DNA of 64,000 nt from a phage: the NCBI GenBank assembly GCA_018509705.1, contig GCA_018509705.1_3630.1; one strand, 5' to 3'. The notes beneath the pieces are model-generated. The model ran no database searches, was not told the origin of the DNA, and saw only the letters and a program-made list of their open reading frames with translations. Numbering within the stretch: the stretch's first letter is position 1; the number at the start of each line of letters is the position of its first letter. Both the position numbers and the translations under genes were made by a program. Of the stretch, positions 33,913-40,743 are shown in pieces.

Positions 33913-33989
33913 TGGTCTCCACGGAGTGATTCGAACACTCGACCTCCTGATCCCAAATCAGGCGCTCTACCAAGCTGAGCTACGCGGAG
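33913..33989 (-). tRNA. tRNA-Pro (anticodon UGG)
   Basis: Hand-folded cloverleaf: acceptor CTCCGCG, D-loop TAGCTCAG, anticodon loop TTTGGGA, T-loop GGTTCGAATC, encoded CCA. Confidence 0.8.
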
Positions 33990-34000
33990 TATTTATTATT

Positions 34001-34075
34001 TGGTGGCCCTGGGTGGAATTGAACCACCGTCTGGCGATTATGAGTCGCTTGCTTGAACCTTCCAGCTACAGGGCC
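34001..34075 (-). tRNA. tRNA with CAU anticodon (Met, or Ile2 lysidine-type)
   Basis: Acceptor GGCCCTG/CAGGGCC, anticodon arm GCGA-CTCATAA-TCGC, T-loop TTCAATT, encoded CCA. Confidence 0.75.
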
Positions 34076-34076
34076 A

Positions 34077-34152
34077 TGGTGCTGATGGCAGGACTTGAAC
34101 CTGCAACCTATTGATTACAAATCAATTGCACTACCAATTGTGCTACATCAGC
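34077..34152 (-). tRNA. tRNA-Thr (anticodon UGU)
   Basis: Acceptor GCTGATG/CATCAGC, D-stem GCAC/GTGC, anticodon arm ATTGA-TTTGTAA-TCAAT, T-arm GCAGG-TTCAAGT-CCTGC, CCA. Confidence 0.8.
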
Positions 34153-34157
34153 AAAAA

Positions 34158-34256
34158 GGTGCTAGGTGATGGAATCGAACCACCTATGTATTCAACGACT
34201 ACCTCGTCTATTTTCAGGATTAAAAATCCTCGCCCTTGCCAAAGGGCTTACCTAGC
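34158..34256 (-). tRNA. atypical tRNA-like gene (about 99 nt; isotype unresolved)
   Basis: Good acceptor (GCTAGGT/ACCTAGC) and T-arm (GGTGG-TTCGATT-CCATC), but about 24 extra nt between D and T arms; anticodon arm ambiguous (AGGAT-TTTTA-ATCCT or 4-bp stem with UUU). Confidence 0.3.
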
Positions 34257-34354
34257 TCAGTATGTTGACCATGTTGCTAGTCGGCGATGACGACTGTAAC
34301 ATTTGATAATCCGGTTCTGCTTCCGGCTTTCGCTTAATTACAAGGTCAACAATA

Positions 34355-34445
34355 TGGCTGAGGGTAATGGAATCGAACCATCATCAAGTCATCCTCAACG
34401 GGACGGTTTTCAAGACCGCTTGAGCACCATTGCTCCCTACCCTCA
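34355..34445 (-). tRNA. tRNA-Ser (anticodon UGA), long variable arm
   Basis: Acceptor TGAGGGT/ACCCTCA, anticodon arm GCGGT-CTTGAAA-ACCGT, long variable arm, T-loop TTCGATT, CCA. Confidence 0.7.
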
Positions 34446-34559
34446 TTTATAAACAATACTGATAATGACACTGATTTTCGAGCAGTTAGTGACTAGTATA
34501 AACGACGATAAATATCAATGCCATTATCTGTATGATTTATGCATTTAAAACTATAAATT

Positions 34560-34646
34560 TGGTGGGGAGTGGTGGAGTCGAACCACCCGAGTCGCAATGA
34601 CAATAGATTTACAGTCTACACCGCTACCCCTACGGGATAACTCCCC
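34560..34646 (-). tRNA. tRNA-Tyr (anticodon GUA), long variable arm
   Basis: Acceptor GGGGAGT/ACTCCCC, anticodon arm GTAGA-CTGTAAA-TCTAT, T-arm GGTGG-TTCGACT-CCACC, CCA. Confidence 0.7.
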
Positions 34647-34650
34647 AATT

Positions 34651-34725
34651 TGGCACCCCGTACTGGACTCGAACCAGTGTCAACGGCTTAGAAGGCCGCT
34701 GCTTTATCCACTAAGCTAACAGGGC
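34651..34725 (-). tRNA. tRNA-Arg (anticodon UCU)
   Basis: Acceptor GCCCTGT (two G-U pairs), D-stem GCTT/AAGC, anticodon arm GCGGC-CTTCTAA-GCCGT, T-arm ACTGG-TTCGAGT-CCAGT, CCA. Confidence 0.75.
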
Positions 34726-34821
34726 ACTGGGTGGCTTTCTTTTACACCTTAGCCGCCAGAAAAGGTGGGAGACCATGTTTACAATATTACACTGTTAAGC
34801 AAAGTTTGTCAAGAAAATATT

Positions 34822-37617: not shown

Positions 37618-38172
37618 TTACTCCCCGCTGTCAATAGCAAAACTCATTGCAATACGGTATGCCTCTTCTAATGGTAAGAGTCTCCCCCACACATCCCAAC
37701 CGACATCAAACTGTCTGCCAAACAACTGTTGTGTGGTTCCGTGAGCATGACCGAACAGTTGGACTGATCCGTGAGGCTTTCTGTTCCACTTTGCAAACTG
37801 GTAATGGCTCATACAGATCAAATTCTTGTTGTGGCGAAGCTCGTAATAATCTACAACCTCATGACCGAACTCTTTCATAATTCTGACAGTCGTCCTTGTG
37901 TCATGGTTACCACGAACAAGAATAATATGTCCGTTCAACATATTTAGAACATCTGGGAGCAATTTGTTGATATTCTTATCATTAGTGCACGCAATATCTC
38001 CCAAGTGAAACACAGTGTCTGCAGGTGACACAACAGAGTTCCACTTGGTGATGATTCCCGCATTCATACTGTCAAGATTGTGATCATACTGAGATCTGTG
38101 TTTTTGACATGAGTCGAACTCCATGACCCGCTGGTGGAGAAAGTGTGTGTCGCTTGTTACAAAGTATTTCAT
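37618..38172 (-). CDS. calcineurin-like metallophosphoesterase (possible polynucleotide 3'-phosphatase)
   Basis: Motifs VTSDTHF, GDIACTNDKN and LVRGNHD; track ORF trimmed to the ATG just downstream of the kinase stop. Confidence 0.55.
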   Translation of the reverse strand: MKYFVTSDTHFLHQRVMEFDSCQKHRSQYDHNLDSMNAGIITKWNSVVSPADTVFHLGDIACTNDKNINKLLPDVLNMLNGHIILVRGNHDTRTTVRIMKEFGHEVVDYYELRHNKNLICMSHYQFAKWNRKPHGSVQLFGHAHGTTQQLFGRQFDVGWDVWGRLLPLEEAYRIAMSFAIDSGE

Positions 38173-38179
38173 ACATTCC

Positions 38180-38590
38180 TCATTTAAGTTTAATGCAGTT
38201 TTTAAGCTGGCGTTCCATACGATCCACAACCCTGTCTGGAACATCATGAATGCTTTTATTACCATGGCGGTTTTCAACCACGATCACGGTATAACTATAC
38301 CCATGACTGATCGCCATGTCAATATATTCTTGCACATATTTTTCTTTTGTAAACGTATTACTTACCACGATACGGTCGTATCCCATACGCATCATATCTT
38401 CTACGTTATCTTTGCACCATTTTGCTGCAAGTGTTACTTTACTTGCATCCCAGTTGTAATTTCCATCATCGTCGTACCAGAACATGTCGTTCTCAAAATG
38501 TGGATACAGACCTTCTAAAGATAGCGCATTTGCCAGTGTTGATTTGCCAGACCCTGGTAGACCACGCACGATATATAGCATTTTAGACAT
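38180..38590 (-). CDS. P-loop kinase (polynucleotide kinase-like)
   Basis: Walker A MLYIVRGLPGSGKSTLA close to the N-terminus; start placed at the ATG preceded by GGAGGA. Confidence 0.5.
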   Translation of the reverse strand: MSKMLYIVRGLPGSGKSTLANALSLEGLYPHFENDMFWYDDDGNYNWDASKVTLAAKWCKDNVEDMMRMGYDRIVVSNTFTKEKYVQEYIDMAISHGYSYTVIVVENRHGNKSIHDVPDRVVDRMERQLKNCIKLK

Positions 38591-38650
38591 AGTAATCCTC
38601 CGTTTTAATTTCAACGATAGTATACCCAACTGTTTTGTTAATTTCAAGTG

Positions 38651-38680
38651 TTGACACTAGGTTATTTGTGTGGCAGGATA
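38651..38680 (+). promoter_or_regulatory. candidate sigma70-like promoter for the plus-strand early gene block
   Basis: TTGACA at 38651-38656; downstream -10 is weak (caggat/gataga), so the call is tentative. Confidence 0.3.
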
Positions 38681-38690
38681 GACTGACAAA

Positions 38691-39626
38691 ATGACAAATG
38701 AGGAATGTATAATGAAGTATTTTAATGCAGACGACCTAGTTGACAAAGGTCTTGTAACCAGCAGATATTACCCAGATCTTGGGTTAAAGATCTATAAATA
38801 TGCCAGAAAAGTATTCTACAACAACTTATGGCATTTGTCTCCTCGATTACTGGAGTGCCGAGGCATTGTTGTCGGTAATGAAGGAAATGTTGTGGCATGG
38901 CCCTTCACAAAAGTGTTTAACTTGGGAGAAAACTCCACCAACCTGCCTGACAATAAGCTTGTGACGGCGGTAGAGAAAAAGAACGGATTCCTTGGTGTGG
39001 TGTCATCTCATAAAGGTGAACTATTGTTCTCAACAACCGGGTCTCTTGATTCTCCATATTGTAACCTTGCAAAGGAAACCATCCAGGAGCAATGCAGTAA
39101 TTTAGATCTTATCAAGAAGGTTATGGGCAATGAAAACATGACATTCATGTTTGAAATTTGTCACCCTTCAGATCCGCATATTGTTCAGGAAGATCATGGT
39201 GCATATTTGATAGGTTGCAGATATAATGATTCTGGAATAATGCTACCAGAAGCAGCTTTAGATGGGATTGCCAAATACCTTGGTGCAAAACGTCCTCACA
39301 CTGTGCGTGAAATTCCGTTCAGTTATGCAAAAGAATTGGCTGCAGAAACAAGAGGTGAAGGGTATATGATTCGTAAGCCTTACTACCCTTATGATCTGCA
39401 GCTGAAGATTAAGTCTCCATACTATCTGGCACGGAAGGCCGTAATGAGGGGTAAAGCTTGGAAGATTTGGGATGATGATATCTTTAAACGTGTTGACGAA
39501 GAGTTTTACGGCATGGTAAACTTCATTCGTAACAACTACACAGAGGATGTATGGAACTGCCTCCTGGAGCAGGAACGCCGTGAGATACTTGATTACTATT
39601 TCCACAACGAGAACTATATGCAATGA
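38691..39626 (+). CDS. RNA ligase (nucleotidyltransferase superfamily)
   Basis: Motif I-like VEKKNGF, motif IV-like GEGYMIRKP, motif V-like LQLKIKSP; adjacent to kinase/phosphatase and the tRNA cluster. Confidence 0.55.
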   Translation: MTNEECIMKYFNADDLVDKGLVTSRYYPDLGLKIYKYARKVFYNNLWHLSPRLLECRGIVVGNEGNVVAWPFTKVFNLGENSTNLPDNKLVTAVEKKNGFLGVVSSHKGELLFSTTGSLDSPYCNLAKETIQEQCSNLDLIKKVMGNENMTFMFEICHPSDPHIVQEDHGAYLIGCRYNDSGIMLPEAALDGIAKYLGAKRPHTVREIPFSYAKELAAETRGEGYMIRKPYYPYDLQLKIKSPYYLARKAVMRGKAWKIWDDDIFKRVDEEFYGMVNFIRNNYTEDVWNCLLEQERREILDYYFHNENYMQ

Positions 39627-39973
39627 AGAAGTTGATTGTGTGGCTAGATGACTTGAGAGATCCGTCAAATTATGGGCTCCCAGACGCTATTTGGCTAAAG
39701 AATTCCTCCGAGTTTATGGATTTTATTAACGATAATAAAAAGCTCTACAGACGCGTTTCTGAGTGGCATATGGACAACGACCTTGGAGAGGTATTCGAAG
39801 GGTACGATTGCCTATCCATGTTGGAGGAAAAGTTTGTATTTGGTAAGCCTCCTGTAGTTGACAACGTGAAGATTTTCGTGCATACTTCTAACCCATCAGC
39901 GGCTCGTAAATTCATGCTTGCGACTGACTCGTTTAAAAAGTTTGGAATAGAGATTAAACAAAACATCTACTGA
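39623..39973 (+). CDS. hypothetical protein (116 aa)
   Basis: ORF track; overlaps the RNA ligase stop and precedes the Sir2-like gene. Confidence 0.4.
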   Translation: MKKLIVWLDDLRDPSNYGLPDAIWLKNSSEFMDFINDNKKLYRRVSEWHMDNDLGEVFEGYDCLSMLEEKFVFGKPPVVDNVKIFVHTSNPSAARKFMLATDSFKKFGIEIKQNIY

Positions 39974-39981
39974 GGACACTT

Positions 39982-40743
39982 ATGCGACGACTGATTGTTA
40001 TCTCCGGTGCTGGTTTGAGTGCTGAATCTGGTATTCCCACTTTCCGATCTGGTAGCACTGCAATGTGGGAGAATTTCAGCATCGATGAGGTGTGCAACAT
40101 CCACACCTTTGCCAAGAACTACTATAAGGTGCATGACTTTTACAATGCACGTCGTGTAGCTTTAGGCAGTGTTGAGCCTAACCTTGCACATCTTCGGATC
40201 GCTGAGTGGTATTCCCGCTGGTCTGGTCGTGTGATCAACCTTACCACCAATGTAGATGATTTGCTGGAGCGTGCTGGTGTAAAACATGAAGATATTTTAC
40301 ATGTCCACGGGTATTTGCCAGAAATAGTCTATGAGGACGATGAAGGAAGTGACGTCATTAAGGACATTGGATACTCTGAGGTAGACGCAGGAAAGTATAC
40401 CTGGGTTAAGCCTAATGTGGTGTTCTTCGGAGAAGTAGCTCCGAAGTATACAGACATGTATGACCTGTTGACTTCTCTTACGAGCAATGATATGGTTATC
40501 CTTGTAGGGTGCTCCAACACAGTTATCAATTTTAACTGGGAGCTATTCCCTGCCTGCAATAAGGGAACCAAACTACTGATCGTTAATAAATACGACTCAC
40601 AGCATCTAGAGGAGAATGGCATTTCACGTAGTGATATTTACCAGTATGAGGATCGCGGCATCCCAGTTTGGTTTAACGGTGCGGTTGATGCCTTCTCTGA
40701 TAAAACATTCATTGAGACTGTAGAAAACTTTATGGAACTTTAA
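39982..40743 (+). CDS. Sir2-family NAD-dependent deacylase / ADP-ribosyltransferase-like protein
   Basis: N-terminal GAGLSAESGIPTFRSG motif and HVHG catalytic-His motif; Zn-ribbon cysteines not evident. Confidence 0.65.
   Translation: MRRLIVISGAGLSAESGIPTFRSGSTAMWENFSIDEVCNIHTFAKNYYKVHDFYNARRVALGSVEPNLAHLRIAEWYSRWSGRVINLTTNVDDLLERAGVKHEDILHVHGYLPEIVYEDDEGSDVIKDIGYSEVDAGKYTWVKPNVVFFGEVAPKYTDMYDLLTSLTSNDMVILVGCSNTVINFNWELFPACNKGTKLLIVNKYDSQHLEENGISRSDIYQYEDRGIPVWFNGAVDAFSDKTFIETVENFMEL

Follow-up and report, generated by a model that had tools for sequence, protein, structure and literature searches.

The subject of this study is an irregular transfer RNA (tRNA)-like gene on the minus strand, at positions 34158-34256, of a 64,000-nucleotide (nt) stretch of phage DNA (contig GCA_018509705.1_3630.1 of assembly GCA_018509705.1), the whole of which is called the window below. 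The element belongs to a conserved, phage-specific family of irregular tRNA-shaped RNAs whose five helices are kept by compensatory change. The source segment comes from an rV5-like coliphage (Vequintavirus), the 1 kb around the element matching Escherichia phage ime at 100% identity and dozens of rV5-type genomes at 98-100%.

A first-pass annotation of the window had described an over-long tRNA-like gene within a tRNA cluster, with an excellent acceptor stem and T arm, about 24 extra nucleotides between the D and T arms and an ambiguous anticodon arm, and this description has held up well. ARAGORN delimits a gene of 99 nt at exactly 34158-34256 on the minus strand, the acceptor stem consists of 7 Watson-Crick base pairs (bp; GCUAGGU/ACCUAGC), the T arm read from the sequence is normal, and the estimate of the surplus was about right, as the alignment to the Rfam tRNA model RF00005 requires a 26-nt insertion in the variable region together with the deletion of position 27. 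The parts of the molecule are listed in Table 1, where nt 1 corresponds to 34256. A8 and A9 (34249-34248) stand directly 5' of the D arm, the anticodon-like hairpin is flanked by an invariant G26 (34231) and an invariant G42 (34215), and 31 nt lead from this hairpin to the T stem. In the rV5 copy the CC after the discriminator runs into UUUUU, so that the CCA end is only partly encoded. Folded as a single sequence, the element reaches -34.2 kcal/mol (z = -3.66), and none of 200 shuffled sequences was as stable. The window copy carries all the parts that define the new family, namely a tRNA body, a 5' linker of the GAAAA type, a hairpin, a 3' linker with AAUAC and a T arm.

The evidence for this architecture is comparative. 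Covariation was computed on an alignment of 21 variants, and RNAalifold and the search for invariant positions were run on 30 variants. In the proposed cloverleaf 97.4% of the cells pair, against 32-44% when the partners are slid by 1-3 columns; 11 of the 22 pairs have changed on both sides, and the covariation score of 0.497 compares with at most 0.114 for the slid arrangements, a value as high not being found in any of 500 shuffles. In the acceptor stem all cells pair (100%) and three pairs have changed on both sides. RNAalifold independently recovers the acceptor, D, anticodon-like and T helices, predicting for the D arm an alternative form of 6 bp closed by the tetraloop UGGC, whose two added pairs never vary. 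Moreover, the pair equivalent to G19:C56 of the tRNA elbow (second G of the D loop, 34239, with the T-loop C, 34177) is G:C in 13 variants and U:A in eight, and is never broken; this switching is direct comparative evidence for a tRNA-like elbow.

Almost all variants fold the extra hairpin in the variable position, with 3-9 bp and unrelated sequences, and a compensatory change from A-U to G-C separates the rV5 and Av-05 versions. No part of the molecule is more conserved than the two single-stranded linkers around it: G42, A44-A46, A65 A66 U67 A68 C69 and A72 are invariant in 30 of 30 variants, with A43 nearly so, and no pairing partner for the 5' linker was found across the variants. Position 8 is A and position 14 is U in all variants, where canonical tRNAs have U8/A14, and U15 and the A preceding the T stem are likewise unchanging; tertiary pairs preserved in exchanged orientation would account for this. 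Within the rV5 type only a few substitutions occur, and these either fall in the flanks or turn G.U into A-U or G-C (G74A and U88C in the T arm). The discriminator is A only in the rV5 lineage and U in the others, or C in one variant; in the Seunavirus, Mydovirus, Henunavirus and UTK0002 copies the discriminator U is followed by an encoded CCA.

The anticodon-like arm differs between genera. It measures 15 nt in rV5, Av-05, Henunavirus, Justusliebigvirus and UTK0002 and 16 nt in Seunavirus and Mydovirus, and never 17, so that it does not have the canonical 17-nt form (5 bp and a 7-nt loop, U33 and a purine at 37). Covariation speaks for four pairs of the stem, among them 27:41 and 30:38 (columns 27:42 and 30:39), which covary across genera; a fifth pair is U-A in rV5, C-G in Seunavirus and Mydovirus, and C.A elsewhere. 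The arm had been called ambiguous, and the 15 nt AGGAUUUUUAAUCCU can indeed be read in three ways, as 4 bp with a 7-nt loop (Rfam), as 5 bp with a 5-nt loop, or as 6 bp with a 3-nt loop in the minimum free energy (MFE) fold, while ARAGORN picks another stem (AUUUU/AAAAU). Four types of loop can be distinguished. The loop is UUUUUAA in the rV5 type, invariant in every copy seen, and UUUAUAA in Av-05. Henunavirus, Justusliebigvirus, UTK0002 and three metagenomic lineages have YAUCAAA, with A33 conserved and covarying stems beneath. Seunavirus and Mydovirus have a 6-nt loop, CNNCCA (CAUCCA, CAGCCA, CCGCCA, CCUCCA or CUUCCA). Only the rV5 and Av-05 types have U33, and the central triplet varies among orthologues (UUU, UAU, UCA, UCC/GCC), the anticodon thus not being conserved. 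Each of these loops resembles a real anticodon loop (Lys, Ile-like, Sec/opal or Gly), but deviates by one position at 32 or 33 or is one nucleotide short.

Several further interpretations of the loops were considered and set aside. A kissing or pseudoknot interaction between the anticodon-like loop and the loop of the extra hairpin (UCCA/UGGA in Seunavirus, GCCA/UGGC in 4MG) is unsupported: UGGAG lies within the hairpin's own stem in KE22 and KB57, and the rV5, Av-05 and KPP-1 types have no matching complement. Pairing of the AUCAAA loop with UUUGGU of the D loop was judged a coincidence of A-rich and U-rich sequence. In Seunavirus and Mydovirus the CC-A is invariant, the wobble position is U or G, and U73, G1:C72 and C2:G71 accompany it; this is suggestive of a constraint towards glycine (NCC), which was nevertheless rejected, because the independent changes are too few for significance and a canonical tRNA-Gly(UCC) is already carried.

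Automatic annotation has dealt with the element in very different ways, and neither ARAGORN nor Rfam assigns to it a normal isotype with a canonical structure, an outcome that would have overturned the first-pass annotation. ARAGORN reports a 'tRNA-???' with a 4-base anticodon 'atcc' and no isotype, a quadruplet call repeated in the GenBank records of slur12 and slur16. RF00005 matches 34160-34256 on the minus strand with 35.5 bits (E 2.5e-5), which exceeds the gathering score of 29 bits; four neighbouring tRNAs reach 60-80 bits, and orthologues in other genera fall below the threshold. Relatives outside the rV5 type are not called by ARAGORN at all. Identical sequences are labelled in GenBank as tRNA-OTHER, tRNA-Lys, tRNA-???(atcc), tRNA-Pseudo or tRNA-TERM, or carry no label; the BASEL genomes give the rV5-type element as 'tRNA-Lys, codon AAA', and an Erwinia phage copy is labelled a suppressor.

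By BLAST, the element matches 167 GenBank phage records. In all, 30 distinct variants were collected from phages and metagenomes, with divergent copies down to ~72% identity. Within the Vequintavirinae it is found in Vequintavirus, Avunavirus, Seunavirus, Mydovirus and Henunavirus, and outside this subfamily in Justusliebigvirus (Stephanstirmvirinae), in one N4-like podovirus (Ithacavirus), Salmonella phage UTK0002, and in metagenomes. A comparison with related phage tRNA clusters had been proposed as a check; in it the element proved to be conserved, every copy located lying within a tRNA array. Pattern scans of IMG/VR with five anchors, and one metagenome scan, returned only these phage types plus chance matches, and a scan of the genomes of 185,579 bacterial and archaeal species gave a single chance match and no members; the family thus appears to be confined to phages. 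A covariance model of the family, R1, gives 93-122 bits to members, including five metagenomic variants outside its training set, and 99.6 bits to the window copy (34157-34256), against at most 30 bits for all ordinary tRNAs in 302 kb, with one copy in each genome segment and one in the window. As a separate observation, in Klebsiella phage vB_Kpn_K18PH07C1 (H158/H247) the match to the T arm of the element falls under a coding sequence annotated as an HNH endonuclease, which suggests that a homing-endonuclease gene has been inserted at or beside the element.

Between sister genera the loop changes but the body and the linkers do not, and two of the three major groups have a loop that does not permit normal decoding; the function shared by the family is therefore most likely not codon reading and would reside in the tRNA body. 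The interpretation we favour, tentatively and with somewhat less than even confidence, is that of a tRNA mimic that does not decode and would most plausibly act as a competitor or decoy against tRNA-targeting defences. The element would be transcribed together with the array from an upstream promoter. As its acceptor stem, T arm and elbow are intact and tRNA-Thr lies only 5 nt away, RNase P would be expected to cut its 5' end, and 3' trimming and, in rV5, the host CCA-adding enzyme would finish its 3' end. The folded L-shape would then be bound by a tRNA-recognising factor through the acceptor, elbow and core, and the loop would mimic a host anticodon loop, that of tRNA-Lys in the rV5 lineage.

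A more specific proposal, to which we assign a rather low probability, is that of an RNA decoy with a lineage-tuned loop, in which the module of linker, hairpin and linker blocks cleavage or productive use. The tRNA body, the elbow and the 3' end would be kept so that nucleases or toxins engage, and the loop would be tuned to be Lys-like in rV5 (UUUUUAA), Gly-like in Seunavirus and Mydovirus (NCCA), and Sec/opal-like in Henunavirus, Justusliebigvirus and the N4-like phage (AUCAAA). For the mimic reading as a whole, ApeA anticodon nucleases of E. coli are active in infections by Vequintavirus and Justusliebigvirus (bioRxiv 10.64898/2026.01.26.701840), AriB of the PARIS system recognises the anticodon stem-loop of tRNA-Lys (PMC11464382), and irregular five-stem allo-tRNA(UAU) species had no activity in translation assays (PMC5389517). 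Together with an RNA-repair-like cassette nearby, ApeA and AriB provide a suggestive though indirect context of conflict for a tRNA mimic.

Several points weigh against the interpretation as a mimic. The decoy role is drawn from context alone, and the CCA end encoded in some genera is not obviously needed by a decoy. The rV5 loop looks fully canonical (U32 U33 UUU A37 A38), and UUU together with A73 matches the identity elements of E. coli lysyl-tRNA synthetase (LysRS). The rV5 copy lies above the Rfam tRNA threshold and bears the tRNA-Lys label in the BASEL genomes, no other tRNA-Lys is found by ARAGORN in the window, and Lys codons are frequent there. Finally, Vequintavirus and Justusliebigvirus are still sensitive to Ec2ApeA, that is, this nuclease is not neutralised (bioRxiv 10.64898/2026.01.26.701840).

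Most of these points are those which speak for the best of the alternatives, a serious one though on balance less likely, namely that in the rV5 lineage the element is a working, if irregular, tRNA-Lys(UUU), charged by LysRS through UUU and A73 and reading AAA and AAG. Such a tRNA would supplement a high demand for Lys or replace host tRNA-Lys cleaved by nucleases of the PrrC or PARIS type, from which its foreign, shorter anticodon stem and its extra arm would hide it. The Rfam alignment, above the gathering threshold, gives a 7-nt loop with U33 and A37; discriminator A is confined to the rV5 lineage, for which the BASEL label states the codon AAA; and the absence of another tRNA-Lys from the array of the window is matched by the presence of a separate tRNA-Lys in PVP-SE1 and muut, whose elements have non-Lys loops. 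Lys codons amount to 65.5 per 1000 in 45 long open reading frames (ORFs) of the window, and the canonical tRNAs of the phage match codons enriched in it relative to background values for the host. Furthermore, related arrays hold tRNAs that are enlarged yet canonical in other respects (an 86-nt tRNA-Lys, and a tRNA-Asn whose extra arm is long).

A published precedent exists in phage T5, whose tRNA-Lys neutralises PARIS and evades AriB by changes in the anticodon stem-loop (Burman et al. 2024, PMC11464382). Like this tRNA and other phage tRNAs with altered anticodon loops (van den Berg et al. 2023, PMC10264068), the element is phage-encoded and situated in a tRNA array, and the window copy likewise sets a Lys-type loop on an anticodon stem unlike that of the host, in a context of conflict with tRNA nucleases. 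The T5 molecule, however, is a canonical decoding tRNA with few substitutions, whereas the element is irregular and has orthologues with non-Lys or non-canonical loops. Against a working tRNA-Lys stand the 15-nt arm, 1 bp short, the A8/U14 swap and the 31 nt in the variable position, as well as the MFE fold, which shrinks the loop to 3 nt, and the output of ARAGORN, which gives no 3-base anticodon. The nearest relative, Av-05 (~93% identical), has UAU and a U or C discriminator, amounting to an Ile/Lys switch by a single substitution, and the orthologues in other genera cannot decode normally, having either a 6-nt loop or a conserved A33.

It is improbable that the element serves only as a processing signal, that is, as a tRNA-shaped handle recruiting RNase P and 3'-end enzymes to the array transcript or to neighbouring RNAs. 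Its position inside a presumably co-transcribed array, 5 nt from tRNA-Thr, would suit such a role, and in Seunavirus the element is followed by ~190 nt of conserved non-coding sequence. RNase P requires little beyond an acceptor stem and a T arm, yet the D arm, the anticodon-like stem, the elbow pair and both linkers are conserved or covarying; besides, the flanking RNAs differ between genera and the downstream stretch does not occur in the window.

The allo-tRNAs or 'irregular tRNAs' of Mukai et al. 2017 (PMC5389517) are the closest published analogues of the family. Both groups have a long extra arm and a D arm whose stem can be lengthened and closed by a tetraloop; most members of either carry U73, the anticodons are very varied, UAU and UCA among them, and some allo-tRNAs likewise occur in polycistronic arrays (PMC5389517). 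In contrast, allo-tRNAs have an 8/4 or 9/3 acceptor/T branch and longer anticodon stems, whereas the element has a 7/5 branch, supported by covariation, and a shorter stem; its hairpin stands between long A-rich linkers with invariant cores; and it is found only in enterobacterial phages, the hosts of allo-tRNAs being Clostridia, Acidobacteria and Proteobacteria. The element thus shares with that group the extra arm, the long D stem and the diversity of anticodons (four loop types), but not the 8/4 or 9/3 branch. Five-stem-junction variants of the allo-tRNAs were inactive in translation assays and have been proposed to be regulatory or non-translational (PMC5389517).

These likenesses (the possible long D stem with its tetraloop, the long extra arm, U73 in most copies and the UAU and UCA anticodons), with the suppressor label of the Erwinia phage copy, are what can be said for a recoding tRNA charged independently of its anticodon, for instance by seryl-tRNA synthetase (SerRS) through the extra arm and the discriminator, which would insert a 'wrong' amino acid, at AAA codons for the window copy and at AUA, UGA or GGN for the other lineages. 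We regard this as highly improbable: the rV5 copy has A73, neither G73 nor U73, its extra hairpin is set off by linkers of 7 and 9 nt, unlike the arms that SerRS recognises, the UCA group has a conserved A33, the loops of Seunavirus and Mydovirus have 6 nt, and misreading of Lys as Ser throughout the proteome would be costly for the phage.

The first-pass annotation had also offered a pseudo-tRNA and a tRNA with a short insertion, and a decaying gene, or one broken by a small insertion, now has very little probability left. Some GenBank labels (tRNA-Pseudo, tRNA-OTHER), the low Rfam score and the lack of an isotype in ARAGORN would agree with decay. Nevertheless, the element persists in seven genera with invariant linker cores and an intact elbow pair, its helices covary (11 of 22 pairs changed on both sides, 97.4% of cells pairing), and substitutions in rV5-type genomes are located in the flanks or are neutral to pairing; because of this conservation, covariation and preservation of pairing, the comparison of sequences effectively excludes a pseudogene. 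As for an intron or a recent insertion, the module occurs in 30 of 30 variants of the seven genera and is therefore ancient, and its flanks are the most conserved part; no bacterial mechanism is known to remove a 25-35-nt insert at this position. Finally, ARAGORN's drawing, repeated for slur12 and slur16, of an 8-nt loop with the quadruplet anticodon AUCC would make the element a +1 frameshift suppressor; this can practically be dismissed, since the AUUUU/AAAAU stem that it needs cannot form in Seunavirus, Mydovirus, Henunavirus or Justusliebigvirus, whereas the AGGA(U)/(A)UCCU stem covaries.

Among regular tRNAs, the element shares with the canonical form the 7-bp acceptor stem, the 5-bp T stem with its T loop and the elbow pair, but lacks U8/A14. 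The nearest of the earlier suggestions was that of a type II tRNA with an unusual variable region, and it was right in so far as a genuine extra hairpin occupies the variable position. As in class II tRNAs (Leu, Ser and bacterial Tyr), there is a five-helix cloverleaf with a hairpin in this position and a canonical acceptor stem, T arm and elbow. The suggestion fails on the remainder: class II tRNAs have very short linkers to the extra arm, a 17-nt anticodon arm with U33, a fixed anticodon and U8/A14, while in the element the hairpin lies between single-stranded linkers of 7 and 9 nt, the anticodon arm has 15-16 nt, being 1 bp short, with a changing loop, A8/U14 replaces U8/A14, and the triplets are not those of Leu, Ser or Tyr.

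A long extra arm, and a D stem that may reach 6 bp around a 4-nt loop, are features that the element has in common with tRNA-Sec (RF01852), but tRNA-Sec has an 8/5 branch, G73 and UCA, against a 7/5 branch, a discriminator A or U and, in the window, the triplet UUU. The best Rfam hits of the relatives outside the rV5 type are to the tRNA-Sec model, the KB57 and muut copies having no match; these hits reach 26-39 bits, below the threshold of 47 and in the range that ordinary Ser, Tyr and Leu tRNAs also attain on this model, and with the 7/5 branch this led us to reject a tRNA-Sec identity. The best match of the window copy within the Rfam clan is the tRNA model and not tRNA-Sec. The loop of E. 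coli tRNA-Sec is CUUCAAA, from which the YAUCAAA of the relatives differs only at position 33.

RNAs that are tRNA-shaped without being used or known for decoding are not new: YrlA, the TMERs of gammaherpesviruses and mascRNA are of this kind and are processed by tRNA enzymes. The tRNA-Other of Bacillus cereus (cited in PMC5389517), likewise tRNA-shaped, processed by tRNA enzymes and not used or known for decoding, has no homology to the element in sequence or architecture. None of these four has the module of linker, hairpin and linker or homology to the element, and the Rfam YrlA model does not match it, its sole weak match in the scanned region lying over the Pro and Met tRNAs. No Rfam family for the element and no published description of it were found, in a searchable literature that is incomplete.

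The interest of the family is both practical and fundamental. The rV5-like, PVP-SE1-like and phi92-like phages, which all carry the element, are among the most used therapeutic and model coliphages and Salmonella and Klebsiella phages; the element bears six different annotations in them, or none, and as model R1 separates the family cleanly, hundreds of genomes could receive a consistent annotation. The element presents a tRNA scaffold under strong selection with an anticodon loop free to change, as would be expected either of a tRNA mimic or of a scaffold able to change the codon at which it is aimed; an invariant linker module joined to a changing loop on a frozen scaffold would surprise a specialist. 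Either outcome bears on why phages carry tRNA arrays and on how they cope with tRNA-cleaving defences such as PrrC, PARIS, retron-Eco7, ApeA and Schlafen-like nucleases. A decoy, if true, would be the first RNA-based one against anticodon nucleases, distinct from the known replacement tRNAs.

Table 1. Parts of the irregular tRNA-like element and other features of its locus, in window coordinates
Feature	Position	Strand	Sequence, extent or basis
Irregular tRNA-like RNA gene	34158..34256	-	99 nt, nt 1 = 34256; ARAGORN, Rfam, model R1
Acceptor stem, 5' strand	34250..34256	-	GCUAGGU, nt 1-7; pairs with nt 90-96
D arm	34232..34247	-	GCCC-UUUGGCAA-GGGC, nt 10-25; 3/4 D-stem pairs covary
Short anticodon-like hairpin	34216..34230	-	AGGA-UUUUUAA-UCCU, nt 27-41; 15 nt vs canonical 17
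5' linker, single-stranded	34209..34215	-	GAAAAUA, nt 42-48; no pairing partner found
Extra hairpin in variable position	34194..34208	-	GACGA-GGUAG-UCGUU, nt 49-63; comparison of variants
3' linker, single-stranded	34185..34193	-	GAAUACAUA, nt 64-72; AAUAC core and final A invariant
T arm	34168..34184	-	GGUGG-UUCGAUU-CCAUC, nt 73-89; canonical T loop, pairs covary
Acceptor stem, 3' strand, and 3' end	34158..34167	-	ACCUAGC (nt 90-96), discriminator A97, then CC; sequence
tRNA array	33913..34725	-	seven genes; ARAGORN, Rfam
Sigma-70-like promoter	34784..34812	-	TTGACA-17-TAATAT, consensus match only; ~60 nt upstream of tRNA-Arg, first in the array
Metallophosphoesterase	37618-38277	-	RNA-repair-like cassette
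AAA_33 P-loop kinase	38180-38647	-	RNA-repair-like cassette
T4 Rnl1-type RNA ligase	38691-39626	+	RNA-repair-like cassette
Cyclic-phosphate-processing receiver domain protein	39623-39973	+	RNA-repair-like cassette
Sir2	39982-40743	+	RNA-repair-like cassette

In the window, ARAGORN gives the order of the array as Arg(UCU), Tyr(GUA), Ser(UGA), the element, Thr(UGU), Met(CAU) and Pro(UGG), the element being flanked by tRNA-Ser (34355-34445) and tRNA-Thr (34077-34152), with a gap of 5 nt to the latter. In the window ORFs AGA is used 15.5 times per 1000 codons, ACA 21.8, CCU 18.0, UCU 20.0 and Tyr codons 42; the six canonical tRNAs of the array read codons strongly enriched in the phage, such as AGA and ACA, in comparison with background frequencies for the host. 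Four of these six (Pro, Thr, Met and Ser) correspond to the host tRNAs cut most strongly by Ec1ApeA, and both codon compensation and replacement after nuclease attack fit the array. The RNA-repair-like cassette (37618-40743) lies 3.4-5.5 kb from the array, and its phosphoesterase, kinase and RNA ligase resemble the T4 healing-and-sealing pathway, which repairs cleaved tRNA.

The T arm of the element, the 3' strand of its acceptor stem and the following UUUUU (34153-34186, minus strand) fit a terminator-like pattern, which could partly terminate transcription before tRNA-Thr, tRNA-Met and tRNA-Pro, or be a simple spacer; the UUUUU tract has one T fewer in some rV5-type genomes. In addition, 18 GenBank records titled 'Campylobacter phage' (MG0656xx) match the coliphage array, those listed being 99-100% identical and unannotated; the Campylobacter host label looks doubtful and suggests contamination or mislabelling.

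Downstream of the element, a conserved non-coding stretch of ~190 nt (L001:1606-1796, with homologues in L002, L007, L037 and L039 and partly in L003) is found in several Seunavirus genomes and partly in Av-05; it was looked for in the window and is absent there. A different conserved stretch (…UUAAAACCUUGCUGCACCUACUGGGG…) lies 3' of the element in PVP-SE1, K54_rec1 and FENT2, and similar sequences follow the element in KPP-1 and Henunavirus and follow tRNA-Asn in UTK0002. Rfam gave no match to the conserved downstream stretches in the loci scanned.

Related arrays contain other unusual genes. Further enlarged tRNAs occur in Salmonella phage PVP-SE1 (L088:8079-8164(-) and L088:7933-8017(-)) and in muut (L045:2481-2564). 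An 86-nt 'tRNA-Lys' has a canonical Lys anticodon arm and an insertion of ~12 nt between the D arm and the anticodon stem, and is reported by ARAGORN as tRNA-???(ggca); tRNA-Asn(GUU) genes measure 84-85 nt, the PVP-SE1 copy having a long extra arm. Two Rfam tRNA matches of 38.6 and 34.9 bits, at L045:1679-1757 (muut) and L005:1787-1865 (KB57), carry no tRNA annotation in GenBank and could be additional tRNA-like genes, weak or irregular. Finally, the gene directly upstream of the element in Seunavirus and Mydovirus (L001:1419-1494, L002:1418-1494, L035:324-398) is also irregular, with loops of 7 nt (ACGAUUC, with C33 and U37), 8 nt (ARAGORN '???' agat) and 6 nt ('???' ga), and may represent a second tRNA-like family with non-canonical loops.

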